The position numbers and the translations under genes are program-made. The notes under the pieces were generated by a model. The model saw nothing but the letters and a program-made list of their open reading frames with translations, searched no databases and was not told the origin of the DNA. 64,000 nt of DNA from the NCBI GenBank assembly GCA_044376115.1, contig JBILLK010000040.1, forward strand, positions 1 through 64,000. The letters are read 5' to 3'. Positions 4,139 through 49,711 of the stretch are shown here, one piece after another (the first letter of the stretch is position 1; each line of letters opens with the position of its first letter). This stretch comes from Polyangiaceae bacterium (GTDB lineage Bacteria; Myxococcota_A; Polyangia; Polyangiales; Polyangiaceae).

Positions 4139-4177
4139 GAAACTTCTGAAGCGGAAGTCAAGTGCTACGCTTTCTTG

Positions 4178-4552: not shown

Positions 4553-4627
4553 GCTCCGCGATCGAAGCGGCCGAAGACACGCCGCAAGGCTCGACGAACC
4601 ACGCTGGACAAGCTACGCCTCCCCCTT

Positions 4628-10224: not shown

Positions 10225-10809
10225 TCAGCGAGGGAACGCCCAGGTCATGTAGCAACAAACGCCGGGCTCCAGCTTTCGGCGCAGCGTGGTTAGCTCCGCC
10301 GAGAAGGAGCGATAGTGAAAGTGCAGATGAGGCCCGGGCGGCGGCGTTGAATAGGAGATCTCCTGCGCTTCGCAGCGTTCGAAGGGCGAAGGAAACGCAG
10401 GCGAAGGGGCCTGCGCCGGCGGCTGCAAACACTCCTCGGTGTGCTCCGGATTATTCTTGTAAAAGGGCTCCTCGGGCAGCGGACGCGTCGGCAGCGCTCG
10501 CGCCGAAGCGCCGGCAGCGGGCGCGCTCGTCGACGAAGACGCAGAGGGCACGGTCGCCGTCTCGACGCGCGGAGTCGGCGACGCGGTGCTGCCAACCTCA
10601 GCCGAAGGCTCCCCCGCGCCAAGCTCGGGCCCACCTTCCACCGAGCTGTGCTGAGCACGAGCGTGCGCCGGCGCTGCGCTCTCGGGCGGCCCGCCGCATG
10701 CGGCGAGCCAGGCTGCAACGCAGCTTGCAACGCCGAACGCTGCGACCTTGGCGGCCCGCGCGACGCCAGCCCTCGAACCCGAGGCGAACGGCGACATCGG
10801 CTTGCCCAT
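10225..10809 (-). CDS. Lipoprotein with Ala/Ser/Pro linker and Cys-containing C-domain
   Basis: WLAACGG lipobox; low-complexity linker; C-terminal CCY. Confidence 0.65.
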   Translation of the reverse strand: MGKPMSPFASGSRAGVARAAKVAAFGVASCVAAWLAACGGPPESAAPAHARAQHSSVEGGPELGAGEPSAEVGSTASPTPRVETATVPSASSSTSAPAAGASARALPTRPLPEEPFYKNNPEHTEECLQPPAQAPSPAFPSPFERCEAQEISYSTPPPGPHLHFHYRSFSAELTTLRRKLEPGVCCYMTWAFPR

Positions 10810-10983
10810 GCTCGGACGCTATCAGACGAGCGATCCTCCGACCACCGAGCGGCGTACTACTCGGGTAGCGTCGCTCGCGACCGCAACACCTTGGCCAGCG
10901 GCGATCGCTCATACGGTGCGCACACGGGTGGGTCGCGCGCCCATATTGAACTTCCGACACCCAACCGCGGTAGGCTGGACCGA

Positions 10984-11565
10984 ATGACTTGGGACGACGC
11001 CCCCTGGACCTTCGGAGGCCTGAAGCTCACGAGGCAAGCGATCGACGTGGTGGAGCGCGAGGCCATCGCTGGCTACCTCGCAGACCATGAGGTCTGTGGA
11101 TTGCTCGCTGGGCCTCTCGCTGATCCGCTCCTGTGCGATCGCGCCATCCCCATCGAGAACCTTGCGAAGGTGTTCCACGCCCGAGACCCGGTCGGTTACC
11201 CAGAGAGCGCGCGCACGTCCTTCCTCTTTCATGAGCGCACGCTCGAGGCCGCCCTGCGCGACGGAAACTCCCGAGGCTCTCCGGTGAAGGTGCTCTACCA
11301 CTCACATCTCGATGTGGGCGCCTATCTCTCGGGAATGGACGAGGCCATGTTGTCACGCGGAGCGCTGCCCCTGACACGCGACGGCCGGGCGACGCTGGGG
11401 GCGGGACCACCGTGGCCGCTCGCGTTCTTGGTCGCGAGCGTGCGTCGCCCGAAAGAGGCAGAGCCGCCGGTCGTGGATGACCACCGGCTCTTCATCTGGC
11501 GGAGCGGTGTGTTCGAGGCGTCGACGATCGAGATCGTCGAGGCTGTTGCTTGCGCTCGCTCCTGA
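10984..11565 (+). CDS. Mov34/MPN/PAD-1 (JAB/JAMM) metalloprotease
   Basis: EVCGLL...YHSHLDVGAYLSGMD matches the JAMM motif E-HSH-x7-S-x2-D. Confidence 0.88.
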   Translation: MTWDDAPWTFGGLKLTRQAIDVVEREAIAGYLADHEVCGLLAGPLADPLLCDRAIPIENLAKVFHARDPVGYPESARTSFLFHERTLEAALRDGNSRGSPVKVLYHSHLDVGAYLSGMDEAMLSRGALPLTRDGRATLGAGPPWPLAFLVASVRRPKEAEPPVVDDHRLFIWRSGVFEASTIEIVEAVACARS

Positions 11566-11719
11566 ACGCCTTGAGCGCGGAGTTTAGGACTTTGCACTTC
11601 GTGCGCACGCCGTTGTCCGCAAGTTGTACAGGCGACCGCGCCCCTCACGGCCTACGGTACATTGTTTCCGCTCGGTCCTAATCTTGCTCCGCACCCGCGG
11701 TAACCGCAGTCGAGGAACG

Positions 11720-13798
11720 ATGATTTCGCAAGCGAACCAACTCCAAGTGCAAGTGGCCACCGGTGATGCCCTCGACGCTCGCTGGTTCTCGGTATCGCAG
11801 GCGATGGATCAGCTGTTTTGCGCTGAGATCCACGTCGTCTCGAAGAACCTCAGCGTGTCGCTCGAAGAGGTGATTGGGGCCGAAGCTTCGTTCTCCATTC
11901 GCACGAAGGGTGCGCGGCACGTCCTCTACGGTGTCGCGGCAGAAATGGTGCAGCTCCGCGTGGACGAGGACGGAGTCGCGACCTACAAGCTCATCCTTCG
12001 GCCGCGCGCGTGGCTCCTTACGCAGCGGAAAAACTACCGCATCTTCCAATATCAATCCGAGATAGCCATCGTCAGGCAGCTCCTGGCAGAGTGGGGCATC
12101 GAGCACGAAGTGATCCTCGGGCGGGAACACAAGCCGCGGAAGTATCGCGTCCAATATGACGAGAGCGACTTCGCCTTCGCATGCCGGATGCTCGAGGACG
12201 CCGGCATCGCGTACTTCTTCCAGCCCACCGACGCCGGCACGAAGCTCGTGCTGTGCGACCAGCCGGAGCGAGCCGACGTCACGTTTCCGCTCCTGCCTTT
12301 TCACGATTCGCCGCAGGTCACAGGGGGCGACTTCGTCACCGACGTGAGGGTGCGGCAGCGCGTCAAGCCTGGCACGAGCACGATCGGTGATCTCGACTAC
12401 CGAAGGCCGAGCACGTCCCAGCCCAGGCTCTCCAAGAACGCGGGGTTGCCCGTCGAGGCGGCGCTCGAGCAGTTCGACTACGAGCCCGGTGCGTTCCTCT
12501 TCCAGGGCGCCGCAGGCGGCAGCTCGCCAGCAGCCGACGATCGCGGAGCTGCTCGGACGGACGAGGCCAGCGGCACAGACCGCACCGAGACGCGCCTCTA
12601 CGCGGCTCGGAGGGGCGACAAGATCGTCGCCGTCCAATCGAACGTGCTCGGCCTTGCCCCTGGCATCGTGTTCTCGATCGCGAACCATCCCCATCGGGTG
12701 GTCGGCCTCGGCGCGCAGGTGCTCGTCACGTCCACCGAGCTCAGCGGGGCCCACGACGCTGACTGGCGCATCAAGGTCGAGGCTGTCTCCACCGGCGTGC
12801 CGTACCGGCCGATGCGGTGCACGCCAAAACCGCGTGTGCCCGGGCTCGAGAGCGCGACCGTCGTGGGTCCCAGCGGAGAGGAGATTCACACGGACGAGTA
12901 CGGACGTGTTCGCGTCCACTTCCATTGGGACCGCGAGAGCAATCGAAGCGACAAGAGCTCATGTTGGCTGCCTACGAGTCAGCCGTGGGCTGGCACCAGC
13001 TTCGGTGGTGTCAATCTGCCCCGCGTTGGCCAAGAGGTCCTCGTGCAGTTCCTGGGTGGTGATCCCGATCGGCCGGTCGTGATCGGTCGCCTCTACACCG
13101 AGATGAACCCGCCGCCGGACAAGCTCCCTGGGTTCAAACACGTCTCGGGCATCATGAGCGAGTCGACGCCGCGGCTGATCATGGGCGGAGCGGGCGAGCC
13201 TGGTGCGAGCGCGCCCGACAGCATTCTCGGCGGGGGCAAGCCGATGAGCCCCGAGGAGATCGCGAGCGAGGTTCAAGGGAACGGGCCCTACGCAGCAAAG
13301 TCACCGACGGGCGCCATACACGAATGGCCCGGAAGCGGCATAAAGTTCTCCGACGCGGACGGTCAACAATCGATCTACCTGCAGGCGCAGAAGGACCTCA
13401 ACATCACGGTCAACAACGCTTGGCGCACCATCGTCAAGGCAGATCGCTCGTGCAAGGTCGGCTCCGACGACATCCTGGAAGTGGGTGGCCGTCACGTGGT
13501 GATCATGAAGGGCAACCAGACCGTCGAGATCAAGGGCGAGCAGTACCTTTCCACGTCGGAGGCGCGGGCCGAAGAGATTCAAGGCACGATGAGCCTCGAT
13601 GTCGACAAGTCCTTCGAGTGCACGTCGGATCTCGACATCAACTACACAGCAAAGCAACTCCTGTCGATCGAAGCCAAGAACAGGATCGAGCTCGTCTCGA
13701 AGGGTGGCTCGATCGTCCTGACGAAAGACTCGATCGTGGTCACAGCCGCGGACGTGTTCGTGCAGCCCGGTGAGGGCGGCTTCAAGAAAGGTAAGTAG
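11720..13798 (+). CDS. vgrG: T6SS spike protein VgrG/TssI, copy 1
   Basis: VQYDESDFAF.RMLEDAGI, EIHTDEYGRVRVHFHWDR, LPRVGQEVLVQFLGGDPDRP, LQAQKD; beta-helix C-terminus. Confidence 0.96.
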   Translation: MISQANQLQVQVATGDALDARWFSVSQAMDQLFCAEIHVVSKNLSVSLEEVIGAEASFSIRTKGARHVLYGVAAEMVQLRVDEDGVATYKLILRPRAWLLTQRKNYRIFQYQSEIAIVRQLLAEWGIEHEVILGREHKPRKYRVQYDESDFAFACRMLEDAGIAYFFQPTDAGTKLVLCDQPERADVTFPLLPFHDSPQVTGGDFVTDVRVRQRVKPGTSTIGDLDYRRPSTSQPRLSKNAGLPVEAALEQFDYEPGAFLFQGAAGGSSPAADDRGAARTDEASGTDRTETRLYAARRGDKIVAVQSNVLGLAPGIVFSIANHPHRVVGLGAQVLVTSTELSGAHDADWRIKVEAVSTGVPYRPMRCTPKPRVPGLESATVVGPSGEEIHTDEYGRVRVHFHWDRESNRSDKSSCWLPTSQPWAGTSFGGVNLPRVGQEVLVQFLGGDPDRPVVIGRLYTEMNPPPDKLPGFKHVSGIMSESTPRLIMGGAGEPGASAPDSILGGGKPMSPEEIASEVQGNGPYAAKSPTGAIHEWPGSGIKFSDADGQQSIYLQAQKDLNITVNNAWRTIVKADRSCKVGSDDILEVGGRHVVIMKGNQTVEIKGEQYLSTSEARAEEIQGTMSLDVDKSFECTSDLDINYTAKQLLSIEAKNRIELVSKGGSIVLTKDSIVVTAADVFVQPGEGGFKKGK

Positions 13799-15533: not shown

Positions 15534-16273
15534 GCAAGATCCCCGCTGCAGCGCGACATCTCGACTACATCGAGCACGACTACAGCCGGCTCGGCAAGTT
15601 CATCGGGCTCTTGATCACCATCGGTCTCGACGCGCTCCCGATCGCCATCGCGCTCACGGGACCTGCCGGGCTCGTCTTTGGTGCGGCCTTCTGGCTGGTC
15701 AAGTACAAGGTCAACAAGGCCATCGAGGACGAGCTGATGAAGCTCGGAGGGAGCATCAAATCGGATGGTGGCCCCGAGGTGGCCAAAGGTTCGGAGAACG
15801 TCTTCATCAACTCCCTCTCTGCTGCGCGGGGTGGACCCGATGGTGACAAGCTCAACTGCTTCACCCACGGGGAGTCGAAGATCGCAGCAGGGAGCAAGTG
15901 GGTGTACATCAACAACAAGCCCGCTGCGCGCATCGAGCTGGATCGAACCGAGTGTACCCACGGCGGCACGCTTCGCTCCAACCCGGCCTCTCCAAAGCCG
16001 AACGTCTTCTTCGGAGGCGAGCCAACCGAATACGACAACGAGTACTCGTTCCACACGGTGGTCGACTACGCCAACATCGGGAAAAAGGTCACCCAGGCTG
16101 CGATGAAGAAAGCGGGCGAGGGCTTCGCAGCGGCGATGCTGGAAGCGGCAAAGGAGGGCGGCGAAGACGCCGCCGACAAGGTCGCCGACAAGGTCGTGGA
16201 CTATCTCTGGAAAGATCCCACGTTCCCGAATCAAGCACCCAACCCGTGGAGAGATCCGGCGGGTGTGCGATGA
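15530..16273 (+). CDS. prePAAR-TMD-PAAR protein with short C-terminal tail
   Basis: prePAAR motif AARHLDYIEH (AARxxDxxxH); TM hairpin; GSENVFINSLSAAR, GSKWVYINNKPAAR. Confidence 0.88.
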   Translation: MSKIPAAARHLDYIEHDYSRLGKFIGLLITIGLDALPIAIALTGPAGLVFGAAFWLVKYKVNKAIEDELMKLGGSIKSDGGPEVAKGSENVFINSLSAARGGPDGDKLNCFTHGESKIAAGSKWVYINNKPAARIELDRTECTHGGTLRSNPASPKPNVFFGGEPTEYDNEYSFHTVVDYANIGKKVTQAAMKKAGEGFAAAMLEAAKEGGEDAADKVADKVVDYLWKDPTFPNQAPNPWRDPAGVR

Positions 16274-18714
16274 GCCTCGACAACAGCGCACGCCTGTCAA
16301 TCTCCAGCGGGGATCCGCTAGACGTGAGGTCCTTCGAGATCACGCAAGCGATGAGCTCGCTCTTTCGAGTCGTGGTGGTCGCCGTGTCGCCCAACCTCGA
16401 CATCGACTTCGACGAGGTCTTGGGAGAGGAAGCGGGATTCACCCTCTTCGCCGGCTCATCGGCTCGGTCCTTCTCCGGGGTCGTCGCCGAGATCAGCCAG
16501 CGACGCGTGGACGATCGAGGCCTCGGCACCTACGAGGTGGTGCTCGTGCCGCGGGCCTGGTTGCTCACCCAGCGCACGAACTACCGAATCTTCCAGTACG
16601 CCTCGGAGCTCGAGATCGTGCAGCGGCTCCTCTCCGAGTGGGGCGTGTCCCACCGGGTGGAGTGCGGAGGTGTTCACAAGAATCGTAAGTTCAGGATGCA
16701 GTACGGTGAGACCGACTACGCGTTCATGTCGCGTATGCTCGAGGACGCTGGCATCAGCACGTGGTTCGACGACGCCGAGGGGGAGAGTGTGCTGGTCCTC
16801 TCGGATGATCCCCAAAGCGCGCAAGTCGCTCATAGTCTTCGGTTCCACGACAATCCGGGCATCACCGACCATCACTTCGCCACGAAGGTCCACGTCGGTG
16901 AGCGTCTGCGCCCAGGGCGAACGACGATCGCCGACCTCGACCATCGGCGCCCCAGCACGAGCCAACCTTCGGCGAGCGCGGCTCTTGGGCTCGCCACTGA
17001 GGCCGCGCTCGAGCAGTTCGACTACGAGCCGGGCGCCTTTCTTTACGTAGCGTCGGCCGGCGGCAGCACCCCCGCCGCCGACGATCGCGGCACGTCGCGC
17101 ACCGATGAAAGCGCTGGCGCCACCAAAACCAACAATCGCCTCTTGGGCCGGAGGCAAGACCACCACGAGGTCTCGTTCACCTCCGACGCGATCGCGCTCG
17201 CCCCGGGCGCCACGCTGGTGATCGCAGATCATCCGCACGTGGCCGCCTCCGGTGCGTTGCTTCTGACCCGAGCCACGTTGCGTGGCGCACACAACGACGA
17301 CTTCCGCGTGGACATCGTGGCTGTGCCTGCGGGCGAGCCGTTTCGACCGGCACCCGTCACACCGAAGCCGCTCGTGTATGGTCTCGAGAGCGCGACGGTG
17401 GTTGGCCCGGGCACCGACGACATTCACACGGACGAGTATGGTCGCGTGCGCGTGCACTTCCACTGGGACCGCGAGAGCGGACGCAACGAGGCCAGCTCCT
17501 GCTGGATTCCGACCAATCAGCCGTGGGCGGGTGCGGGCTTCGGCGGCACGGTCATTCCTCGGGTCGGGCAAGAGGTCCTGGTGGAGTTTCTCGGCGGCGA
17601 TCCGGATCGGCCGGTCGTGATCGGACGGACGTACACGGAGCACCAACCACCTCCATACGAGCTCCCGCGAGGAAAGAAGCTCACGGCGCTCATCGGCAAT
17701 CCGACCCCTGGCATGCTCATGGGAGGAGCGATGGGTGGAGTCGATTCTCAGATCTTCGAGCTGCAGCGGGGCAACAGCCCTGCATTTACCTCCCTCACCG
17801 AGAACAGCATCCGAAGTTCCGGCAACACGGGAATTGCCGATCGCCAGCGAGAGCAGGCCAGAAATTCGAACCTGAAGCCAAACGATGAGTTTGCCGCCGA
17901 CCTCCCGCAAGACATGCGCACGCAGGCCGGCTACGGGGACACTCGGAACATGTTCGTGGTCGGTGACGAGAAGGACAAGAACCTCGTCTTCATGCAAGCG
18001 CAGCGAGACCTCAACATCCTGGCAAAGAACAACTGGCGCACGGTCGTCGGCAACTTCCGAGGCATCGCGATCCTCGGCAACGACGATCTGCACGTCCGCA
18101 ACAAGCAGCTCGTGTCGGTCGTGGACGCGCAGCTGCTCCAAGTCGAAAAGGACCAATCCATCGACGTGACGAAGAAGCGCACCGAGGACATCGGGACCAC
18201 GTGTGGCCTCATCGTGACCAAACACGCAAAGATCGAGGTCAAGACCACGATGACCCTCAAGGCCAAGAAGTCCATCGTGTTCGAGTCTGATGAGGCCATT
18301 CAGTTCAGGGTCGGTAGCTCGGTCGTGCGCATCGACAAGAACGCGATCGGGTTGAGCTCCAAGAGGATCGATCTGAACCCGGCAGCCGTGACCGCGAAGG
18401 CCCGCTTCGAGCCAATCACCGACGCCCGAAAGGCAGCGTTCGAGGCCGCGGCCCGCAAGGCGATGGCCGCAAAACCTGCATCACAGGAAGATCGTCTCAG
18501 CCAATACGAGTCGAGCCAAACGAATCCGGATCTGCAGCAGGCGGGCACGGACGGGTTGAACCACCAAATGCAGAACGGCGAGAACGCCAGCACGATCAGC
18601 GGCAACAACTACGCGGCGTACCGGGATCAGCTTCAGCGCGGCATGCATACGGGCGGACGCACGATGTCCCCGGAGATGGCCGACTCGACCCTGAATCAGT
18701 TCATGGCGCAGTAA
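16270..18714 (+). CDS. vgrG: VgrG copy 2 with ~110-aa C-terminal extension
   Basis: Same VgrG motifs; sequence continues after the terminal RIDLNP. Confidence 0.95.
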   Translation: MSLDNSARLSISSGDPLDVRSFEITQAMSSLFRVVVVAVSPNLDIDFDEVLGEEAGFTLFAGSSARSFSGVVAEISQRRVDDRGLGTYEVVLVPRAWLLTQRTNYRIFQYASELEIVQRLLSEWGVSHRVECGGVHKNRKFRMQYGETDYAFMSRMLEDAGISTWFDDAEGESVLVLSDDPQSAQVAHSLRFHDNPGITDHHFATKVHVGERLRPGRTTIADLDHRRPSTSQPSASAALGLATEAALEQFDYEPGAFLYVASAGGSTPAADDRGTSRTDESAGATKTNNRLLGRRQDHHEVSFTSDAIALAPGATLVIADHPHVAASGALLLTRATLRGAHNDDFRVDIVAVPAGEPFRPAPVTPKPLVYGLESATVVGPGTDDIHTDEYGRVRVHFHWDRESGRNEASSCWIPTNQPWAGAGFGGTVIPRVGQEVLVEFLGGDPDRPVVIGRTYTEHQPPPYELPRGKKLTALIGNPTPGMLMGGAMGGVDSQIFELQRGNSPAFTSLTENSIRSSGNTGIADRQREQARNSNLKPNDEFAADLPQDMRTQAGYGDTRNMFVVGDEKDKNLVFMQAQRDLNILAKNNWRTVVGNFRGIAILGNDDLHVRNKQLVSVVDAQLLQVEKDQSIDVTKKRTEDIGTTCGLIVTKHAKIEVKTTMTLKAKKSIVFESDEAIQFRVGSSVVRIDKNAIGLSSKRIDLNPAAVTAKARFEPITDARKAAFEAAARKAMAAKPASQEDRLSQYESSQTNPDLQQAGTDGLNHQMQNGENASTISGNNYAAYRDQLQRGMHTGGRTMSPEMADSTLNQFMAQ

Positions 18715-18718
18715 GGAG

Positions 18719-20770
18719 ATGTCGATGAGCTTCAACGACTTGAGCGTGACCATCGCCACCGGCGATACGCTGGACGTGCGGACCTTCAAAGTGGAGCAGG
18801 AGATGAGCAAGCTCTTCTCCGTCGAGCTCCTGGTTCGCTCCGAGAATCAGGACATCGATTTCGACGGCGTCATCGGTCAGGCCGCGACCTTCATGCTGAC
18901 CACCAACACGGAGCGTCCTCAGTGGTCGGGGATCTGCCTCGAGATGGAGCTCCTCCGCGTCGAAGAGACGGGCCTGGCGACCTACCGGCTCGTGATTGCG
19001 CCGCGGCTGTGGCTCCTCACGCAGCGCAAGAACTTCCGCATCTTTCAGTTCCTCTCGGATCTCGCCATCGCGCAGAAGCTCTTGAGCGAATGGGGGATCG
19101 AGACCGTCACGCGCGTCGACCCAAGTGTTCACGTGGCCCGCAAGTACCGCGTTCAGTACGACGAGAGCGACTTTGGTTTCATCTGTCGCCTACTCGAGGA
19201 CGCCGGCATCAGCTGGCGCTTCGAGGGCCCGGAGTCGAAGCTCGTGCTCGACGATGCACCCGAGACGAGAGACCTCCAACATCCGCTCGTCCGCTTCCAC
19301 GATGCGCCGTCCGTGACGGAGGGGGCCTTCGTGACCAAGCTCTCGGTCACCTCGCGTGTGCGCCCCGGGGCGATGGTCATCGGTGACGTCGACTATCGAC
19401 GGCGGAGCGATCGGCAACCGCGCGCTTCGGCGATGGCTGGGCTGCCGCAAGAGACGGTGCTGGAGCAGTTCGACCACGAGCCTGGAGCGTTCCTTTATGT
19501 GGGCAAGGGAGGTGGCGTGACCCCAGTCGCGGACGATCGCGGCGCAGCGCGCACGAGCGACGCCCTCGGTGATCGAAAGACGAAGAACCGGCTCGCGGGA
19601 AAGCGGCGAGACGCCAACGAAGCAATGTTCGAGTCGAACGTGCTGGAGCTCGCGCCAGGGTCGATCCTCAGCGTCGCGAATCATCCGCACCGCCAAGTCG
19701 CGCTGGACAGAGGACTTCTCGTAGTGCGGGCGGTGCTTTCGGGTGAGCACGCGAACGATTGGCGCGCGCAGGTGACGGCCGTGCCCACGTCTGCGCCGTA
19801 CCGCCCCGCGCTTCAGACGCCAAAACCGCGTGTCCGCGGGCTCGAGAGCGCGACCGTGGTCGGCCCTCCGGGAGAAGAGATCCACACCGATGAGTTCGGC
19901 CGTGTGCGTGTGCACTTTCACTGGGACAGAGAGAGTCAGCGCGACGAGAAGAGCTCGTGCTGGGTGCACACCGCTCAGCCTTGGGCGGGCAATGGGTTCG
20001 GGGCGATCAACCTCCCTCGAATCGGTCAGGAGGTCCTCATCGAGTTCCTCGGGGGTGATCCCGATCGTCCGTTCTTGGTGGGGCGTGTGTACACGGAGAC
20101 CAATCCACCGCCCGACGCCCTGCCGAAGTACAAGCACGTCGCAGGGCTCTTCACCGAATCGACGCCGCGTCTCGTCATGGGCGGCTCGACCAACTTTCGC
20201 GGCACGGGCGGAATCAAAGGTGGGACGCCCTTGACGCCCGCGGAGGTGTTGTCGCGAAGCTCGACCCCCGGCCCCAAGGACATCGTGTCGCCGACGGGCA
20301 CGAATCACAATTGGCAAGGCAGCGGCTTCAAGCTCTCTGACCAGTCGGGTGCCGAGAACTTCTACCTCCAGGCGAACAGGGACATGCACTGGGTCATTCG
20401 CAACAACTGGACGACCGTCGTCGGCAACGAGCGCAGCGCGGTGATTGGCACTCACGACATCACTGGCATCAAGCAAAACCAGAAGATCTTCATCGGCAGC
20501 AACCAAGATGTGCTCTGTCTGAGCCAGGTGAACAAGGTCACCGGCAACCGATACGACAAGGTGCACGAAGCCTTCTCCCAGACGGTCAACAAGGAAGTGA
20601 AAGTGGAGTCGACGACCGGCCAGCTGATCCTCAAAGCCGACGACGCCATCACGATTGATGGGGACGTCGCGGTCGAGTTTCGCGTGGGCGATTCTCTGAT
20701 CCGCGTCGACCCGAATCGGATCGGCATCGGCGCCGAGGGCAACCTGGTGCTGCTCAACCCAGGGCAGTGA
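18719..20770 (+). CDS. vgrG: VgrG copy 3
   Basis: VgrG motifs; AGGAG RBS; ends VLLNPGQ. Confidence 0.95.
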   Translation: MSMSFNDLSVTIATGDTLDVRTFKVEQEMSKLFSVELLVRSENQDIDFDGVIGQAATFMLTTNTERPQWSGICLEMELLRVEETGLATYRLVIAPRLWLLTQRKNFRIFQFLSDLAIAQKLLSEWGIETVTRVDPSVHVARKYRVQYDESDFGFICRLLEDAGISWRFEGPESKLVLDDAPETRDLQHPLVRFHDAPSVTEGAFVTKLSVTSRVRPGAMVIGDVDYRRRSDRQPRASAMAGLPQETVLEQFDHEPGAFLYVGKGGGVTPVADDRGAARTSDALGDRKTKNRLAGKRRDANEAMFESNVLELAPGSILSVANHPHRQVALDRGLLVVRAVLSGEHANDWRAQVTAVPTSAPYRPALQTPKPRVRGLESATVVGPPGEEIHTDEFGRVRVHFHWDRESQRDEKSSCWVHTAQPWAGNGFGAINLPRIGQEVLIEFLGGDPDRPFLVGRVYTETNPPPDALPKYKHVAGLFTESTPRLVMGGSTNFRGTGGIKGGTPLTPAEVLSRSSTPGPKDIVSPTGTNHNWQGSGFKLSDQSGAENFYLQANRDMHWVIRNNWTTVVGNERSAVIGTHDITGIKQNQKIFIGSNQDVLCLSQVNKVTGNRYDKVHEAFSQTVNKEVKVESTTGQLILKADDAITIDGDVAVEFRVGDSLIRVDPNRIGIGAEGNLVLLNPGQ

Positions 20771-40443: not shown

Positions 40444-40480
40444 TGGCAATAGGAAGGGCCTCAAACGAGAGGAGACGTCC

Positions 40481-40567
40481 AGCTAACGTATTGGCGTTCA
40501 GCGGCGGGCGGAAGAGTGAGGCCGAAGGCCGACCGAAGCCGAGCCGACCGCTAACGCTCAGTTGGGC
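40481..40567 (-). mobile_element. attC-like site
   Basis: Minus strand GCCCAAC-TGAGCGTTAGCGG...CCGCTGAACGCCAATAC-GTTAGCT. Confidence 0.85.
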
Positions 40568-40621
40568 AGCATCCGTGTCGAGCATCAGCCGGCCGGCATC
40601 GAACGATAAGTTCGGCATCCG

Positions 40622-41363: not shown

Positions 41364-41594
41364 TCATGAAAGCAGCGGCCTCCGCCTTCGGCAAGGCTCA
41401 GACTCGCTGCGCTCGGCGTTCGATTGGCTCAAGGCTTCTTGGGCGAGACGGCTCATCACGGGGTGGGTCGTGTAGAGGTCGCAGAGCAGGTCGTGAATCA
41501 CCTGATAGGTCGCTGGGCATAGCAGCTCCTCAAACCCATCGAGGCCTTCGTCGGCGAGGTCCTCGATCGTCTTCGGTCGTTTCTTGTCGTTCAT
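41364..41594 (-). CDS. Small hypothetical protein, paralog of 33542-33823
   Basis: PKTIEDLADE...DLYTTHPVMSRLAQEAL. Confidence 0.7.
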   Translation of the reverse strand: MNDKKRPKTIEDLADEGLDGFEELLCPATYQVIHDLLCDLYTTHPVMSRLAQEALSQSNAERSESEPCRRRRPLLS

Positions 41595-41619: not shown

Positions 41620-42225
41620 TCACGCGGCGTTCAAACTCAGGGTTACCGCGGCGTGGTCGGGTCGCGTCGCGCCGACCTCCGCTCCAGGGTCGTCTCCGAT
41701 CGATCGCAGGCCCTCGACGCGCGCGTCGACGCTGCACCGCCAGCGCCCGCTTCGCGCGAGTTCTTCGCTCACCAGGATCTGATCCAGCATCTCCCGATGG
41801 CCGTTGTGCACGCGGGAGAAGCGGCGCTCCTCAGCGACGAGCGCGCTCAGATTCCAGAGCCGCTGCGCGTCGCCAAGGTCCGGAAGCGCGAAGCCGCGGG
41901 TCTCGATCGCCGAGCCGCCAGGCCCGAGCAGGATCTGCGTGGTCGCGGCGCTGGGCACGTCGTTGAGGTCGCCGAGGACGATCACCGGGCGCTGCTCCGC
42001 GCGTAGCTTCGACACGACCGCTCTCACCGCTGCGGCCTCAGCGGCTCGGCGAGCCAAAGCTTGTGCCGCTACGCGCGCGCGGAGGTCTTCGTCGGTGGTC
42101 GAGAACTTCCCGCCAGGGAAGGTCAGCAACTTCGACTTCAGGTGCACGTTGATCAGGTCGATCGAGAAGTCCGCGCGTTCGACTCGGACGTGCAGCGCGC
42201 CTCTGCCGAGGCGTGGCGTCTTCAC
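41620..42225 (-). CDS. Endonuclease/exonuclease/phosphatase (EEP) family protein, N-terminally truncated
   Basis: NVHLKSK, VLGDLND, LDQILVS and PDH motifs; GTG overlaps the upstream TGA; N-terminal N...E motifs absent. Confidence 0.75.
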   Translation of the reverse strand: MKTPRLGRGALHVRVERADFSIDLINVHLKSKLLTFPGGKFSTTDEDLRARVAAQALARRAAEAAAVRAVVSKLRAEQRPVIVLGDLNDVPSAATTQILLGPGGSAIETRGFALPDLGDAQRLWNLSALVAEERRFSRVHNGHREMLDQILVSEELARSGRWRCSVDARVEGLRSIGDDPGAEVGATRPDHAAVTLSLNAA

Positions 42226-43601
42226 ATCACACCTCGCGCCCTTCGGATCTCTGTTCGCGTCATCGGGCCACGCATCAGCGTCATGGCCCACCTTGGTTGG
42301 ATCAGCTGGGTCTCGCTCGTGTGCGCGTTGCGCACGACGAACCAGCGCGGGCGCAGGTTCTTGAGCAGCCCGTCGAGTTCTTCACGACCGCTGCCAAGCT
42401 GTGCTTCGTTGATCAGGCCGTCGAGCACGCGAGCGCGATCCGCGTCGGTCTGCAGTCGCCCCAAGCACCAGAGGCCCGCGTTGGAGAGGGAGCGGTAGTC
42501 GAGGTCCATCGGGTTCTGGGTCGCGATCACCACGCCGACTCCGAAGGCCCTCGCCTGCTTCATCAGCGCGACGAGCGGCCGCTTGGTTGGTGGGTTCGCC
42601 GGGTGCGGCGGCAAGAAGCCGTACACTTCGTCGAACACCACCAGCGCGCGCAGACGTTGTGACCCCGAGAGGCCGCGCACCCAGGTGAGCACCTCTTCCA
42701 GCACGAGGCCGAGGACGAGCGCACGCTCATCGTCATCCAGGTGGGCCACGCTGACGATCGTGGCTGGGGTCTTGCCGTTCACCGGCGCCATCCAGGCGCC
42801 GATGTCGAGCGTCTCGCCGCGCCGCCAGCTCGAGAAGGTCGGCGACGCGAGCAAGGTGTTGAGCGCGGCCGCGAGATCCTTTCGGGCCTTCTTGGAGATG
42901 AAGGCGTCGGTCTCCAACGCACCGACGCGATCGATCGGCGGCGCGAGCACGTCCTCGAGCAGCGCGCCCAGCTCGGCGGTGCCACCCGCCGCGAGGCGCC
43001 GCTCCGCGAGCAGCGAGAGCAGCACGTGCTCACGACTCTTGGCCGGATCCGGATCCCGACCGAGCAGCCGGAGCACGAGCGAGATGGCGGCCGACAGCGC
43101 CGAGCGCGCGCCGTCCGGATCCGAGGCCCAGCGCGCGGAGGGCCGCTCCAAGCCCGAGAGGACATGGAGCAGCTCGCCCGCATCGGCGCCCGGCGTCACG
43201 ACACGTACGTGCGTACTCCCAGCGAAGTTCTTCAGCGCGTCTTGGTCGATGCCGAAGGCGGTGAGCCCCGTCGCTCGCTCCCCCGCCATTCGGCTCGCGA
43301 CCGTGTGCGCATCTTCGTGAGCGCTCATCCCTTCAACCCAGGGCGCGATGGCGCTCGGATCAAACGTCGGAATTTGGAGCAGGAGGTTTGGAAGGTCGCC
43401 CTTCACGTCGATCACGAGGACCGGGATTTGGTTGCGTAGCGCCTCCTCCACCATCACGGTGATGAGGCCGGTTTTCCCGCTGCCGGTCATGCCGACCACG
43501 ACGCCGTGAGTGACGAGGTGGTGCGCCGGCAGCCGAGCCGGCGTCACCTCTTTCTTCAGGCTGAGGGGTCGTGCGATGCCGAGGTGAAGGCTCGGCGTCA
43601 T
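42222..43601 (-). CDS. HerA/FtsK-like (DUF853-type) ATPase
   Basis: HGVVVGMTGSGKT, VIDVKGD, VVFDE, KQARAFGVGVVIATQNP. Confidence 0.88.
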   Translation of the reverse strand: MTPSLHLGIARPLSLKKEVTPARLPAHHLVTHGVVVGMTGSGKTGLITVMVEEALRNQIPVLVIDVKGDLPNLLLQIPTFDPSAIAPWVEGMSAHEDAHTVASRMAGERATGLTAFGIDQDALKNFAGSTHVRVVTPGADAGELLHVLSGLERPSARWASDPDGARSALSAAISLVLRLLGRDPDPAKSREHVLLSLLAERRLAAGGTAELGALLEDVLAPPIDRVGALETDAFISKKARKDLAAALNTLLASPTFSSWRRGETLDIGAWMAPVNGKTPATIVSVAHLDDDERALVLGLVLEEVLTWVRGLSGSQRLRALVVFDEVYGFLPPHPANPPTKRPLVALMKQARAFGVGVVIATQNPMDLDYRSLSNAGLWCLGRLQTDADRARVLDGLINEAQLGSGREELDGLLKNLRPRWFVVRNAHTSETQLIQPRWAMTLMRGPMTRTEIRRARGVM

Positions 43602-43603
43602 GA

Positions 43604-44530
43604 TCAGCCCCGTCCAACCGGCTCGTCAGAGGGCAAGCCGGTGGTGCCCGCGTTCACGACCGGCTGGGTCGAGCCGGCAGGGACCGCAGCGACGACCGGT
43701 AGCTCTGGCGCGAGTTCTTCCTCTTTGGTCTCGGTGCGCCTACTTTTCTTGGGCGCGAGGCTCGGAGTAAACGACTCCACGTCGTCTTCGTACCAGCGCA
43801 GGTACGTGACGCCGCGACGGACCTCGTCGTACGCCCGGACGAACAGCGTGAGCGCCTTGCGGCGCGTGAGCGAGGCGGCGCTGATGGTCTCCGGTTCGCG
43901 GCCCTTGATGCCGATCGCCACCATCATGCGCAGCGCGAGATCCTCTGCTTCGAGCAGCGAGGCCTCGGTGATCGGGCTCTTCGACGCGATGGCTGCCCAG
44001 CTATTGCGGAACAGCCCCACGAGCGAGGTCACGTCGAACGCGAGGTTCTGAAAGCCGTTCGGGTTGCGCAGGTTCTTCACCGTCGTCGCGTCCATCAGCC
44101 CGTAGTTCTCAAGCGCGATCGCCATCGAGATCAGGCTGCTGCGCACCTTGGTGAGCTCGGCGTCGAGCTCCTGCGTCGAGGTCGACGGCGCGCTGGTGAT
44201 GGTGAAGTTCGCGTGGGCCTGCGCCGCCGCGAGCGTGTAGCGCTCGAGGTTGTCCAGCTTCTGCACGTCGAAGCCGCGCAGCTGGATGAGCTCCGACCGC
44301 AGCGTCTCGATCGTCGGCAGGTACGCGAGCACGCGGATGGTCACGGCGCCGATGTCCGTGAACATTTTCATCGCCCCTTGGTCCGGGATCGCTTCGATCT
44401 CGTCGATGGTCGCCTCAAAGGCCGGCCTCATCCGGCTCGCAGGGATGGTGCCGCTCAAGGTCGGCGCGGTGACGCTCGGCGTCGTCTCGTCGCCAGGGTT
44501 CGTAACGCCGCCGGGGATGCTGTTCGACAT
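43604..44530 (-). CDS. All-alpha hypothetical protein leading the HerA operon
   Basis: GGAGAG RBS; ~308 aa; RKALTLFVRAYDEVRRGVTYLRW...PSL; 2 bp from the HerA start. Confidence 0.8.
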   Translation of the reverse strand: MSNSIPGGVTNPGDETTPSVTAPTLSGTIPASRMRPAFEATIDEIEAIPDQGAMKMFTDIGAVTIRVLAYLPTIETLRSELIQLRGFDVQKLDNLERYTLAAAQAHANFTITSAPSTSTQELDAELTKVRSSLISMAIALENYGLMDATTVKNLRNPNGFQNLAFDVTSLVGLFRNSWAAIASKSPITEASLLEAEDLALRMMVAIGIKGREPETISAASLTRRKALTLFVRAYDEVRRGVTYLRWYEDDVESFTPSLAPKKSRRTETKEEELAPELPVVAAVPAGSTQPVVNAGTTGLPSDEPVGRG

Positions 44531-44738: not shown

Positions 44739-45132
44739 AGACCCTATCAACAGGCTCGCCGAGATCGTGCGACGTCGTCCGGACCCTGTTGAAAGGGTCC
44801 CAGAGACTTCGAAAGTCTCCTGGACCCTGTTGAATGGGTCTCTTTTGACACACCCGGTCTTTTTGACCCTGTTGAAAGGGTCCTAGAGACACGACTGTCT
44901 CTTTTTGAGCCATTCAACAGGGTCCAGGAGAGGCAAAAAGTCTTTTGGACCCTGTTGAGAGGGTCCCAGAGACACGACTGTCTCTTTTTGAGCCATTCAA
45001 CAGGGTCCAGGAGAGGCGGAAAGTCGTTGGGACCCTGTTGAGAGGGTCCCGGAGACACGACTGTCTCTTTTTGAGCCATTCAACAGGGTCCGGGAGAGGC
45101 GGAAAGTCGTTGGGACCCTGTTGAGAGGGTTG
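44739..45132. repeat. Phased array of ten 20-bp boxes at 41/42-bp spacing, alternating orientation (83-bp higher-order unit)
   Basis: GGACCCTGTTGARAGGGTCC or reverse form TGAGCCATTCAACAGGGTCC at 44739, 44781, 44822, 44864, 44906, 44947, 44989, 45030, 45072, 45113. Confidence 0.92.
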
Positions 45133-45140
45133 GAGAGGTG

Positions 45141-45300
45141 CGACCGGGACCTCAGGTGGCGCTCTAGACCGGGTGCCTGGGTGACACTGTCCGGGTGCCT
45201 AGGTGACACTGTCCGGGATGGTTGGCGACGTGGTCCGGGGTGGCTGGCGGGCTTGACCGGGTGGGTCGGTGACGCAGACCGGGAGGATGGGGGCACGACA
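45141..45300 (+). repeat. 22-bp-period CCGGG repeat block, copy 1
   Basis: CCGGG at 45169, 45191, 45213, 45235, 45257, 45279; unit CCGGGTGCCTRGGTGACACTGT. Confidence 0.85.
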
Positions 45301-45711
45301 GGGTTGGGCCGTCGAAGCGGCGGTGGGCACAAGACCTTGCTCGACGCCTCACCTAGAGAGCGCATTTTGCGCACCCTGGTCGAGCAGCTCAGGCCTTGGG
45401 GAATGCGAGACGGAGCAGACCGTGCGGAGCTCGGTCCTCGGGCGCCAAGGATGGAGTAGGCCCTCGGCTGCGCGCAGGCGGGCAATCGTGTCGGGGTAGT
45501 GGCGGACTCAAGCCAGCGCATGGGTCCCCAGCCAAGAACCACCTTAGCTGGCTCCGTAGGCGGATGACATGAGCCGACTTGAAGCCGCCGTAGGGAAGGG
45601 CGGAGGAGAGATGGGGCTGGGGAGGCCTCACAAGAGACGACCTACCTCGCCAGTTACTTTGTCAGGCCGTGAAGGACGCCGTGTAATCTAGTGGGCAGAC
45701 AGAGGCGGCGC

Positions 45712-46869
45712 ATGAAAGCACTACGTTCGACCGTCGATCTTGACGAGCACAAGCATCAGACCGTCGACATGTTGCTCGACGGTGCCACGAGAGTCTTCCT
45801 CGACACTAACGTTTTGGCGTGGTCGTTTCGGCTAAACGAAGACGCACGGCATGAGTTCCAGCATTGGCTGGGAGCACTGCGCCACGACGAACGGCTCGCA
45901 ATCCCGGCGTGGGTTGTGCACGAATACAATCATCACCTTTCCAGAGAAGACCCTGCCTTTTTCACGCCCGCCAAGGTGCTAACCAAGCAACTCTCCACTT
46001 TGTTGGGCGAACTTGATCGAACGTCGCACCTTGTCTTTTCGGACAACGCCAGTCAGACACTGGGGTTCGCGAACAGAGACGATCTGCTTCGCAAGACCGC
46101 GGACGCGGCGTCGCTAATCGAAACGGTTGCACGCCAGGCGGTATCTCAAGCCGCTGAGTCCCGCGCCCTGCTGGTGCCATTTTGGGAGGAGGTCGTTGCC
46201 AGCTCTGGACTAACGTCGGACATTCAAGCCCTTGCGCTCCGCGCTTCGGGTGAAGTTCAGGCACGCGCTGCCAATCGGCTCGCGCCTGGCTACCAAGACG
46301 CCGCCAAGTCGGAAAACAGCGTCGGAGATCTGGTTCTATGGTCCGAGATGCTCGATGATTGTCGCAACCGAAAGTGTGGCGCCGCGGTCCTGTTGACGAA
46401 TGATCGAAAGGCGGATTGGGTCTATTCGCCCGTCGCAGTCTCGCTCAGCAACGGCAAAGAGATTTCAGGAAAAACCGCAGCCGTCCAGAATGTTAAGCTT
46501 CCGAAGCCGGAGCTGGTTGCAGAGTTCGAGCGCGCTAGCGGACATTCCAACGTTCTCATTCTCACCCTCGACTTTGCTATCGAATCCTTGTCCTCGAATG
46601 CGCTCAACTCTTCGTCAGCAAACGACTTTCGACACCTCGCATTGGCTGCCCGAATCGATCTGGCTCGAACCCCGACCGAGGCGGTTATCGCGTGGTTCCT
46701 CAAAAACCCGGGCCTGCTCGATGAGGCCACTGCCGGCGTGTGCCACTGGAAGGCCAGCCCCTCCGAGGTCGACCAAGACGCGTTCGTCAAGTGGGTCTCT
46801 GACCGAACGGACCTCGCGAAGAATGAAGCGGTCGTCTGGGGCGATGTTTTCGTCGAGCTGTTCTTGTAG
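45712..46869 (+). CDS. PIN-like domain protein (PIN_8/DUF4935-type), cassette
   Basis: FLDTNVL, IPAWVVHEY, PGYQD..K...GDLVLW, LLTNDRKADW; followed by attC. Confidence 0.85.
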   Translation: MKALRSTVDLDEHKHQTVDMLLDGATRVFLDTNVLAWSFRLNEDARHEFQHWLGALRHDERLAIPAWVVHEYNHHLSREDPAFFTPAKVLTKQLSTLLGELDRTSHLVFSDNASQTLGFANRDDLLRKTADAASLIETVARQAVSQAAESRALLVPFWEEVVASSGLTSDIQALALRASGEVQARAANRLAPGYQDAAKSENSVGDLVLWSEMLDDCRNRKCGAAVLLTNDRKADWVYSPVAVSLSNGKEISGKTAAVQNVKLPKPELVAEFERASGHSNVLILTLDFAIESLSSNALNSSSANDFRHLALAARIDLARTPTEAVIAWFLKNPGLLDEATAGVCHWKASPSEVDQDAFVKWVSDRTDLAKNEAVVWGDVFVELFL

Positions 46870-46912
46870 CGCACCCGGATTGTCTCCGACCTGGGTCAGT
46901 GCGCCCGATGCT

Positions 46913-46965
46913 GCCCAACAAGGCGTTGCACCTAACGATCGCCGGTGAACGCCAGTACGTTGGGC
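46913..46965 (+). mobile_element. Short attC-like site (53 bp)
   Basis: GCCCAAC-AAGGCGTTGCACC...GGTGAACGCCAGTAC-GTTGGGC; perfectly complementary cores. Confidence 0.85.
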
Positions 46966-47071
46966 AGACGGTTGCTATGACCTTGTTGAGACGCCTGTAG
47001 CGACGCTGATTGCCGGCTCGATCTTTGCGTTCTATCGGGACAGCAGCGGGGCGCCCGCGCGGGTGCACGTC

Positions 47072-47980: not shown

Positions 47981-48053
47981 GCGTTGCAGCGGATGGTAGC
48001 CTCAGTCGCTTCGCTCCCGCTTCCTCCCGCCGCAGAACGCCAATACGTTGGGC
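47971..48053 (+). mobile_element. attC-like site
   Basis: GCCCAAC-TGAGCGTTGCAGCGG...CCGCAGAACGCCAATAC-GTTGGGC; next ATG 9 bp downstream. Confidence 0.88.
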
Positions 48054-48061
48054 GGACACGC

Positions 48062-49348
48062 ATGACCACTGGGGACGGAACACAGAAGCTGCGCGACGCC
48101 TTGGCCCAGCTCAAGGCCCTGCTCGCCCAGGTCGATGTTCCAGAGGCACGCTTTCAGCAATGGTTTGAGCAGCACCCAATAGTCTTCGAGGCGCTCGGGT
48201 TCCGGCAGTGGATCCCGCAGCCCCGGTTCCCGCTCGGCGATGGCCGCTTCCTCGAGCCTGACTTCCTGGTTGAGGACTTCAATGCGGTCTGGTCTGTCTT
48301 CGAGCTGAAGCGGCACGAAGCAACGGTGCTCAAGAACCCCGATCGTCGCACGGACTTTCGCTCCGATTTCTCGACCTACGTTCAACAGTGTCGCGAGTAC
48401 GCCATCCACTTCGCAGACTCAGCCAATCGGCGCTTTGCCAGCGACCAGTACAAGATCAACATCCAGCGTGAGGTACCAAGCATCATTGTAGCGTCCACCG
48501 ACGACTTAACGGACCATGCGGTCGCGCGCGATCTCCTCATCGATCGTGGAAACCGCGTCGAGCTGCGCACCTATTCTGAAATTTTGCGAACCTTGCTTCG
48601 CCAGCTTGATTGGACCTCAATCGATGTTGCGCGCCGCCCCGGAATCGCCATGGGAGTGCTCGGTGTGTTCCCTGTGGGCTCGTCGGAGCAAGTGCTCTTC
48701 GACTTCGGCAAGCAGCGCAGCCGGAGCCGCGCTTCCATTGGCCTTCAGGGGACGAAATTCTTCCTGAGCCTGGTCGACGCGGACGGTCATTTGCAGCGGT
48801 GGGAAGTCGAGAGGCCCGTTGTGCCAGATTTCGCCAACGCGACCCCGCTCGAGTTGCTTGAGCTCGAGGTCGGCGTATCCGCTGGGTCACTGTACGTCTC
48901 CGCGCACCACAATCGGCGATGCCTTGTGCAACAGCACCTTCCAGCAACACGCATAGCTCTGGACGACCTCGCTGGCGGAATGGCCATCGGAACCGATGTC
49001 ACCGGAAAGAAGCCCTGCAACTTCAGCCTGGTCGAGTCGTTCGCCTACATGCGTACGCTCGCCCCGAGCGAGCGCTTGCAGATCTATGACCATCTCGATG
49101 AGGTCTATCACCACTACCTGAGCCCGCTTGCAGTGGAACGACCGGGTCGAGCCGTCTTTCGCGGCAGCAAGTGGATGACAACGGCGGGCCACCCGCTGTC
49201 CAACGAGCCGGCGAAACCCACGCCCGACACAACCGGTCCGTGGGGCTGGTGGACCTCTAGCGCAATGGTCCTCGACGACGGTAAACCACCGCCGCCTGAT
49301 CGTCGGCTTGGAGCGCAGAGGATTTTACTCCCAGGGATGAAGAGCTAG
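48062..49348 (+). CDS. Shedu/DUF4263-like PD-(D/E)XK nuclease with C-terminal beta-rich domain, cassette
   Basis: EARFQQWFEQHP, PDFL, FELK, QQCREY (QxxxY), TYSEIL. Confidence 0.78.
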   Translation: MTTGDGTQKLRDALAQLKALLAQVDVPEARFQQWFEQHPIVFEALGFRQWIPQPRFPLGDGRFLEPDFLVEDFNAVWSVFELKRHEATVLKNPDRRTDFRSDFSTYVQQCREYAIHFADSANRRFASDQYKINIQREVPSIIVASTDDLTDHAVARDLLIDRGNRVELRTYSEILRTLLRQLDWTSIDVARRPGIAMGVLGVFPVGSSEQVLFDFGKQRSRSRASIGLQGTKFFLSLVDADGHLQRWEVERPVVPDFANATPLELLELEVGVSAGSLYVSAHHNRRCLVQQHLPATRIALDDLAGGMAIGTDVTGKKPCNFSLVESFAYMRTLAPSERLQIYDHLDEVYHHYLSPLAVERPGRAVFRGSKWMTTAGHPLSNEPAKPTPDTTGPWGWWTSSAMVLDDGKPPPPDRRLGAQRILLPGMKS

Positions 49349-49443: not shown

Positions 49444-49566
49444 GGGCGGAGAACTAACTTGAGCCTTCGATCGGACCTCGTAGAAGCATTGCGTGACCTC
49501 TCACAGAACAGCTATCTGCTGGCACTCTCGACGTACGACCTTTGCGCAACGGAAATCCGATGTGTA

Positions 49567-49711
49567 CGACCGGGACCTCAGGTGACTGTTTTGACCGGGT
49601 GCCTTGGTGACACTGTCCAGGACCCCGCGAATACGCTCCGGGATGGTAGGAGACGTGATCCGGGTAGCTGCCGTCATTGACCGGGTGGGTCGGTGACGCA
49701 GAGGACGATGG
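49567..49711 (+). repeat. 22-bp-period CCGGG repeat block, copy 2 (direct repeat of 45141-45300)
   Basis: CGACCGGGACCTCAGGTG...CCGGGTGCCTTGGTGACACTGTCC...CCGGGTGGGTCGGTGACGCAGA. Confidence 0.85.

Follow-up and report, generated by a model that had tools for sequence, protein, structure and literature searches.

What is a compact operon with a HerA-like ATPase gene, found among defence genes of a Polyangiaceae bacterium, and which of its parts belong together? The operon occupies positions 41,620 to 44,530 of the first 64,000 nucleotides (nt) of contig JBILLK010000040.1 (assembly GCA_044376115.1), a stretch called the window here. It encodes a helical protein, a HerA/FtsK-superfamily ATPase and a shortened nuclease of the EEP family, and a tandem repeat array lies upstream of it. 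A first-pass annotation of the sequence had described the three genes as a coupled operon, an unrecognised combination with a repeat array. Our results show that the EEP nuclease is not the defining partner of the ATPase. With confidence slightly above even, we propose that the operon belongs to a set of at least 11 paralogous copies, all in this genome, of a module conserved in Polyangia. Such a module comprises a 22-25-nt element, an array of palindromes with a phase of about 42 bp, a helical protein of acidic character and an ATPase of the HerA/DUF853 type, with an EEP nuclease as an optional and here likely inactive addition; the array would serve as a docking row, and the module would probably have a role in genetic conflict.

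As shown in Table 1, the three open reading frames (ORFs) are arranged head to tail on the minus strand of the window. A gap of only 2 bp (TC) separates the helical gene stop from the HerA ATG, and the HerA stop codon TGA overlaps the GTG start of the EEP gene as GTGA. The tight coupling of the three genes noted in the first pass was thus seen directly in the ORFs. Upstream of the helical gene, Tandem Repeats Finder (TRF) reported an array at 44865-45130 with a period of 83, 3.2 copies and 95% matches, and its 41/42-nt sub-units could be followed from 44782. Each unit contains two 6-6-6 inverted repeats, GACCCT-N6-AGGGTC and AGAGAC-N6-GTCTCT. The small ORF 3' of the EEP remnant had no family match in a profile search that included NCBIfam; copies 50% identical to it were observed near the modules on contigs C15 and C90 of the assembly (L006 556-717 (-) and L028 331-492 (-)), where they lie upstream of the module on the opposite strand.

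The genome contains 11 helical genes and 10 near-full-length HerA-like genes, which are pairwise adjacent, and a near-full-length HerA gene follows 9 of the 11 helical genes. The modules were located on contigs C8, C11, C15, C19, C21, C56, C66, C72 and C90, and decayed copies on C57 (HerA fragments only) and C88. Compared with the window copy, the ATPases of the paralogues are 65-78% identical and the helical proteins 20-36%. The paralogue on C15 has the same arrangement as the window operon, with a helical gene, a 466-aa HerA-like gene, the GTGA overlap and a full-length EEP gene. The DNA of the C15 and C90 copies is 93.8% identical between the 25-nt element and the HerA stop codon, where the similarity ends, and thus the duplicated unit comprises the element, the array, the helical gene and the ATPase gene, with the nuclease outside. 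In loci L039, L043 and L055, and on C15, C90 and C19, the arrays are likewise preceded by the motif of the 22-25-nt element. Directly after the intact trio on C15 (L006, C15:52000-64726), a bAvd-like gene and a reverse transcriptase gene (PF22296, PF00078) were observed at 10696-12086 on the plus strand, probably a diversity-generating retroelement.

The array accompanies the gene pair as well. TRF arrays with a period of 40-42 (or 81-83) stand directly 5' of 8 of the 11 helical genes in the genome, and the unit sequence is different each time. The copies on C19 and C11 have no TRF array and carry at least three recurring palindromes at a spacing of 42, 84 or 169 bp. In total, phased upstream palindromes were found at 10 of the 11 helical genes, and none at that of C72. 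Public loci were collected with the ATPase as query, 80 from species genomes and 80 from metagenomes, with at least two contigs common to both sets. Where at least 1 kb of room was available, a helical homologue was present directly 5' of the ATPase in 60 of 67 genome-set loci and 46 of 53 metagenome-set loci. TRF arrays (period 41-43, 82-86 or 126) were detected in 30/53 genome-set and 21/41 metagenome-set loci with at least 400 bp 5' of the helical gene. TRF reported no array in 43 public loci, of which 11 nevertheless carry at least three copies of one palindrome at 41-43 bp or at multiples of this distance (82-84, 125-126, 164-170 and 209-210). The phased arrangement was therefore present in 62 of the 94 public loci with enough upstream DNA, although the array sequences differ. 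The association of the repeat array with these genes, which had been assumed in the first pass, is borne out both in the genome and in the public loci.

The position of the arrays is also constant. The array ends a median of 189 bp from the start codon of the helical gene, and arrays are about 37-fold commoner in the 1.3 kb 5' of helical genes than in the flanking DNA. As background, 6 such arrays were counted in 512 kb of genome-set flanks beyond the upstream 1.3 kb, and 3 of these 6 stand before a second helical gene. In the complete genome of Labilithrix luteola, both occurrences of one array type lie 5' of helical genes. A separate dispersed tandem-repeat family, with an 83-86-nt period and a GCGACA(C/T)..CGG core, was observed at C4:355, C40:2693, C41:37112, C47:4429, C48:94992 and C94:340727; it is unrelated to the helical genes.

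The composition of the arrays was examined in 60 arrays, 58 of them distinct. The results showed that 268 of 356 perfect-armed palindromes have a centre of 0-3 nt. Judged by their sequence, such centres are typical of dimer-binding DNA sites and appear too tight for RNA hairpin loops. The AT skew of the sense strand is positive in 28 of the 58 arrays and the GC skew in 29 of the 58. At the positions flanking the perfect arms, G:T was found 208 times versus 181 for A:C, and by arrays the two prevailed in 23 versus 22. Array composition therefore gives no apparent sign of a strand-specific RNA. The spacing of the palindromes is fixed at about 41.7 bp, close to four turns of B-DNA, and we therefore interpret the palindromes of an array as sites that all face the same side of the helix. 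A length of 42 bp corresponds to about 14 nm, roughly the width of a HerA-type hexamer.

We next describe the ATPase. Its Pfam matches are PF05872 HerA_C (36.6 bits, cut-off 22), which spans only profile positions 12-62 of 502, and PF01935 DUF87 (33.9 bits, cut-off 23.2). The Walker A motif GMTGSGKTG (residues 37-45) and the Walker B motif VVFDEV (321-326) are intact, and a comparison of 9 paralogues and 51 homologues showed little or no variation in either motif. The AlphaFold2 (AF2) model of the protein has a predicted local distance difference test (pLDDT) score of 85.3 and a predicted template modelling (pTM) score of 0.87. A Foldseek search of the PDB with this model gave 137 matches at E<=1e-3, and the top ones were HerA entries with a template modelling (TM) score of 0.45-0.53. 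The best matches were HerA-NurA 9x1m (E 4.9e-12), Sulfolobus HerA 4d2i and SIR2/HerA 8wld; further ones in the same TM range (0.45-0.53) were DUF4297-HerA complexes, the DndH C-domain, TrwB and VirB4. The second protein is thus HerA-like, as the first-pass annotation had stated. There is no room for an N-terminal HAS barrel, as Walker A starts at residue 37 and only two short strands (4-12 and 20-25) precede the core. The match to the solved YjgR chain 11kk is limited to residues 31-73, in the P-loop region (E 5.8e-6). Close homologues are labelled 'DUF853 family protein' or 'helicase HerA-like domain-containing protein' in their sources. The NCBIfam HerA models scored only 19-30 bits with the ATPase at cut-offs of 800-970, including HerA_antiphage NF042943 (29.7 bits, cut-off 800). 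A check of the operon with PADLOC did not yield a known defence system: it returned weak single-gene matches of the ATPase, to mad8 (2.1e-14) and HerA models, and none for the helical protein or the EEP protein. Elsewhere in the genome, a 934-aa fused HerA-like ATPase was observed at 4452-7256 (+) of L034 (C57:215000-226000), with a core 57% identical, N- and C-terminal extensions, and neither a helical gene nor an array beside it.

The first protein had been described as helical and of no recognised kind, and both points hold. Its AF2 model (pLDDT 86.8) is all-helical over residues 34-254, followed by a disordered Pro/Ala-rich tail, and no family was found for it in Pfam, PADLOC or NCBIfam. 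Foldseek gave no match in the PDB at E<=1e-3, and the wide VIA-align search returned generic helix bundles only (Z<=9.4). Its ESM Atlas matches are unnamed Myxococcota clusters only. When 1.84 billion cluster representatives were searched with a 77-member profile of the family, 5221 matched at E<=1e-3 and 1949 of them still at E<=1e-30, and the family is present in 12 of 201 genomes sampled across the phylum, often in many copies. The protein is acidic, with an isoelectric point (pI) of 4.97 for the window copy and a median of 5.4 for the family (n=77). A tail motif, [GAS]-x-P-x(2-4)-P-[FLIY], occurs in 53 of the 77 sequences, and most others have close variants such as GLPSDEPV or a P-[FLIV] end; the tail of the window protein ends with GLPSDEPVGRG. 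From the tail motif, and from the strong divergence of the helical paralogues next to well-conserved ATPases, the helical protein is predicted to be an adaptor. It represents a large family that has no name.

The third gene is much less constant. Among 120 loci with at least 900 bp downstream, a co-directional ORF starts -30 to +150 bp from the ATPase stop in 70. The largest cluster of these downstream ORFs has 14 members, and the 2 that were tested are both SNase (PF00565). Only 7 of the 120 are EEP, of three unrelated kinds, and the remaining ORFs each stand alone and are of diverse types, such as kinase, transposase, zeta toxin and AbiEi. With the EEP profile alone, an EEP adjoins the ATPase in 2 of 69 and 5 of 51 loci, several of them fragmentary. 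In all, about 21 of the 120 loci have a nuclease of the SNase or EEP kind after the ATPase, and no NurA was found among the downstream genes of 34 representative loci. From these sequences, a non-specific nuclease appears to be a recurrent minority add-on that is swapped at the ATPase stop codon and prone to decay. The neighbourhood described in the first pass is therefore conserved for the helical protein and the 42-bp array but not for the EEP gene, and with the duplicated core ending at the HerA stop codon, the EEP is not the partner that defines the ATPase.

The EEP gene of the window has itself been shortened. Its product matches PF03372 with 39.6 bits (cut-off 24.5) over profile positions 115-213 of 225 only. 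As a query, the 201-aa protein retrieved 842 proteins at E<=1e-3, and most of the best 120 are 311-343 aa long. The closest homologue, P0001 (318 aa), is identical to it at 191 of 197 positions (97%) from residue 122 on. The N-terminus of P0001 is MKTLKVTTWNVQN and that of the window protein is (M)KT-P-RLGRG, so that both begin with MKT. In an alignment of 30 EEP sequences, the window row shows MKT, a single long gap and then PRLGRG, and therefore the change is an in-frame internal deletion that kept the coupled start. It removed about 117 codons, with the junction, read at the protein level, at about 42216-42214, and the coupled GTG start was retained. Residues 4-120 of the intact form are missing, which agrees with the earlier remark that the N-terminal motifs are lacking. 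They include the catalytic Asn (N10, WN motif) and the metal-binding Glu (E51, QE motif), and the nearly invariant residues lost are T8, W9, N10, N13, L14, F15, Q50, E51, V52, G53, D79, R81 and G82. In the solved EEP 9sf9, the counterparts of the lost Asn and Glu motifs are SYNIEN and LIEV. On the other side of the junction, H145, the invariant residues D203, N205, D265 and D307-H308 and the C-terminal motifs LGDLND, LDQILVS and RPDHAAV are kept. Having lost its catalytic front third with both the Asn and the Glu motif, the protein is likely inactive. In the window copy, nuclease activity has thus likely been lost while the core pair of helical protein and ATPase is intact.

Two other explanations of the short gene were rejected. 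It had been suggested that the EEP might be a remnant broken by insertion, or a split or inactive partner. The in-frame deletion in the alignment spoke against insertion and splitting, and a tblastn search of the whole 10.1-Mb assembly with P0001 found no separate 5' part; it found the remnant, one full-length paralogue of 69% identity on C15 and two distant relatives. Only the inactive state, as a likely one, stands. An assembly artefact was also rejected, as contigs of three of four lake metagenomes (X1, X3 and X4) carry the deleted allele and cross the junction without any indel. The X1 contig has 0 differences, and the X3 contig has 7, all of them in the next ORF; in run X5 the junction was not covered. 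A decayed module with a second, larger deletion of the same kind was observed in L036 (C88:51000-60000, ORF 3802-5241 (-)). In this ORF the first 25 HerA codons are joined in frame to the last ~25 EEP codons (RLQNLRSIGDDPERERRELWPHH) and then to an ImmA/IrrE-type peptidase (PF06114). A DUF4411 gene follows the fused ORF.

Taken together, these findings are consistent with the following scheme. Docking sites on double-stranded DNA, lined up along one helix face, would make up the array. As an adaptor or sensor that evolves fast, the helical protein would be attached to the ATPase through its conserved C-terminal tail, G-[LM]-P-x3-P-[FL], and the ATPase would be a ring translocase acting on DNA. 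Where a nuclease is present, it would degrade the DNA handled by the ATPase. The role of the module is probably in genetic conflict, either defence or exclusion, as suggested by its context, namely the defence-gene neighbours and the patchy multi-copy spread over the phylum. Several observations weigh against this scheme. The helical protein is acidic and has no DNA-binding fold recognisable by Foldseek or VIA-align, and therefore it is a poor candidate for reading the palindromes. About 80% of the modules have no nuclease, so a defence model is left without an effector, and the anti-phage HerA models of PADLOC and NCBIfam are far under threshold for the ATPase. About a third of the public loci have no array, and in the complete genome of Labilithrix luteola only 3-4 of the 7 helical genes have a phased array. 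The sequence of an array follows that of the helical protein only loosely: L091 and L097, whose helical proteins are 76% identical, share no 11-mers, while L042 and L095 have a palindrome in common although their helical proteins are 41% identical. Moreover, orphan arrays lie away from helical genes (on C3, C22 and C92 and at C15:3181).

The orphan arrays also suggest a different explanation, in which the arrays are independent repeat elements (clusters like repetitive extragenic palindromes or bacterial interspersed mosaic elements (REP/BIME), recombination scars or insulators) that pile up in the same islands and have no functional tie to the helical and HerA genes. Arrays with unit types of the modules do occur without module genes (C3:128, C22:661/1087/1420, C92:48715, C15:3181), with no helical or HerA gene or remnant within 3 kb, and C22 has two array types side by side; the modules without a detectable array and the loose tie to the helical protein fit this view as well. 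It is contradicted by the enrichment 5' of helical genes relative to the 512 kb of flanks, by a position and a period that stay constant over loci of unrelated sequence, by the array lying inside the duplicated C15/C90 unit, and by the two occurrences in Labilithrix luteola. In addition, three orphan arrays start contigs, so that arrays seem to break the assembly and the other flank of these three is unseen. We therefore consider independent elements unlikely. Still less probable is that the array is transcribed and acts as an RNA, as in type III toxin-antitoxin systems, a reading that we regard as very improbable. In those loci (ToxIN, CptIN, TenpIN), system-specific tandem repeats of about 36-45 nt immediately 5' of the protein gene yield antitoxin RNAs. 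The module similarly has tandem 41-43-nt units directly 5' of its first gene (~189 bp), specific in sequence to each paralogue, and each unit could form a hairpin. Nevertheless, there is no strand asymmetry, G:T is not above A:C, and three quarters of the palindromes leave no space for an RNA loop. No ToxN/AbiQ-like protein was found among the three proteins with Pfam and PADLOC. A terminator scan gave 1 site, on the opposite strand and below the shuffle mean, with nothing terminator-like between array and gene; a sigma-70 promoter scan gave 0 sites, and Rfam gave no meaningful match across 36-52 kb of the window.

If the array is a DNA element, as we favour, the module could still be a partition-like or DNA-anchoring device, in which the array would resemble a centromere, the adaptor would carry a terminal peptide and the NTPase would be the motor, for DNA maintenance or organisation rather than defence. 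In parC-parM-parR and tubC-tubR-tubZ, a tandem centromere array stands upstream of an operon for an NTPase and an adaptor whose terminal peptide is flexible. The gene order and the tailed adaptor of the module resemble these cassettes, the sites are phased on one helix face, and where a second locus has an array of the same type, that array could be a target in trans. However, the NTPase is of the HerA type and not ParA, ParM or TubZ; the adaptor is acidic and has no ribbon-helix-helix or helix-turn-helix domain in Pfam, with only generic bundles in the fold search, although a new DNA-binding mode is possible. The 11 copies are chromosomal, without replicon or integrase genes seen beside them, and a nuclease as third gene is ill-suited to segregation. 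We consider a partition-like role quite unlikely. The last alternative concerns the EEP remnant, which might be retained as a functional non-catalytic partner of the ATPase, a pseudo-nuclease rather than debris. The deletion is exactly in frame with the coupled GTG start kept, the 197 residues that remain contain no stop and match the intact form with 97% identity, and the allele is present in lake metagenomes of different years, once with 7 substitutions nearby. On the other hand, no other homologue of such architecture was seen; the shorter database entries are on contigs of ~1-2 kb and may be cut by contig ends, and the deletion takes out one third of a single-domain fold. Other EEP copies also decay by deletion (the C88 fusion and the fragmentary EEPs in L041, L170, L172 and L176), and most modules have no third gene at all. 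We give this possibility little credence.

Compared with known systems, the module resembles the HerA-NurA end-resection complexes of archaea and Deinococcus in that the gene of a HerA-fold ring ATPase is coupled to a nuclease gene. In contrast, its nuclease is EEP or SNase instead of NurA and is absent from most modules, its ATPase has no HAS-barrel N-domain, and its constant partners are the helical protein and the phased DNA array. With Sir2-HerA (Nezha), DUF4297-HerA and mad8 of MADS it has in common that an ATPase of the HerA type is combined with varying effectors within defence islands, and the ATPase fold matches 8wld, 8uae, 8j4u and 8zir; unlike them, it has no Sir2, DUF4297 or other mad genes, and its partner protein has no family. 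The repeat array has no known counterpart in the anti-phage HerA systems. The match to YjgR/DUF853 (PF05872) is above the Pfam cut-off, with similar size and no HAS domain, but the ATPase aligns only to positions 12-62 of that profile. Partition cassettes differ in the class of their NTPase, and the modules are chromosomal, multi-copy and sometimes equipped with a nuclease. Type III toxin-antitoxin loci differ by their ToxN-like RNase, while the repeats of the module carry no strand-specific signal and have palindrome loops near zero. The accessible parts of the literature on HerA-like, DUF853 and YjgR ATPases contain no description of the module, and no described family was found for the helical protein or the array.

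Pairs of HerA-type ring ATPases and effectors are being recognised more and more in DNA repair and anti-phage immunity, and the large DUF853/YjgR branch, which has no known function, appears here with two constant companions that have not been described, the helical family and the array in cis. A wider proposal is possible, though we hold it only tentatively: the modules may form a class of ring ATPases anchored on DNA arrays, in which private palindromic docking rows, four helical turns apart, place adaptors and HerA-like hexamers side by side as a sequence-addressed DNA-processing machine, with a dozen mutually orthogonal versions per Polyangia genome for defence, exclusion or chromosome handling. 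Since the palindromes differ per copy while the ~42-bp spacing is fixed, the arrays offer an experimental handle on a family without a function, and the divergent versions within one genome constitute a natural specificity test. The case also documents how an accessory nuclease is gained at the ATPase stop codon and lost by deletion.

Table 1 Coordinates of the operon, its array and related features (window positions unless a contig is named).
Feature	Location	Strand	Details
Helical protein gene	44530-43604	-	308 aa; start ATG 44530, stop TGA 43606-43604
HerA/FtsK-superfamily ATPase gene, DUF853/HerA_C kind	43601-42222	-	459 aa; ATG 43601, stop TGA 42224-42222
EEP nuclease remnant	42225-41620	-	201 aa; GTG 42225-42223; codons 1-3 and residues 121-318 of the intact form
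ORF 3' of the EEP remnant	41364-41594	-	76 aa; operon membership uncertain
Array, ~8 units of 41-42 bp, higher-order period 83	44782-45130	strandless	Repeat search, TRF
Tandem element, 22-25 nt, ~5 units, outer module edge	45138-45290	-	Sense GTCACC..CCCGG
attC-like site of the left cluster closest to the operon	40476-40570	strandless	Left cassettes read on - strand
attC-like site of the right cluster closest to the operon	46912-46968	strandless	Right cassettes read on + strand; site after the PIN_8 gene
Orphan arrays, window-module type	C3:128-397, C22:651-988, C88:127-398		At contig starts
Orphan arrays, C21/C88-module type	C22:1087-1643		
Orphan array, C66-module type	C92:48715-49019		Inside the contig
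Another orphan palindromic array	C15:3181		

The surroundings of the operon had been described as a defence island between two attC clusters, and this was supported both by counts of the attC core and by the Pfam content of the neighbouring genes. A strict canonical attC regular expression found 0 sites in the window, and the attC-like sites were counted with a family-specific 23-nt core pattern. This core has 3 matches on the plus strand (37198, 40100, 40484) and 3 on the minus strand (46940, 48028, 49418), versus 0 in 100 shuffles of the sequence. Each site can be folded into an imperfect palindrome of the R''...R' kind, such as GCCCAAC...AGTAC-GTTGGGC in the right-hand site closest to the operon, and the two clusters that flank the operon have opposite orientations. 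On the right, an attC-like site follows each of the plus-strand cassettes, PIN_8 (45691-46869), a small ORF and Shedu SduA_C (47984-49345). On the left, the cassette genes are read on the minus strand, and therefore the operon lies at the point where two cassette arrays diverge. Two further ORFs lie between the operon and its downstream attC-like site. According to Pfam, the island genes include PIN_8, SduA_C, a deaminase, DUF488, an ImmA-like Peptidase_M78, HsdM, GmrSD and an EcoEI-type R subunit (type I restriction-modification). The deaminase, DUF488, the peptidase and the restriction-modification genes with GmrSD are located to the right of the Shedu cassette. The only true integron integrase IntI of the assembly (TIGR02249, 415 bits, cut-off 265) is on another contig, C25.

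Some minor features of the window were also observed. Between 45691 and 51522, an attC-like site stands after each of the genes for PIN_8, Shedu SduA_C and a large deaminase, which appear to be integron cassettes. Directly after the attC-like site of the Shedu cassette, an orphan second copy of the 22-nt element, 86-90% identical, occupies 49564-49702; no array or module genes accompany this copy, which may have been left behind by a second module that was lost. Further away, a region of 9 kb contains three VgrG-like genes (Phage_GPD, Phage_base_V, Gp5_trimer_C), at 11624-13795, 15898-18711 and 18719-20767, the last two in tandem.

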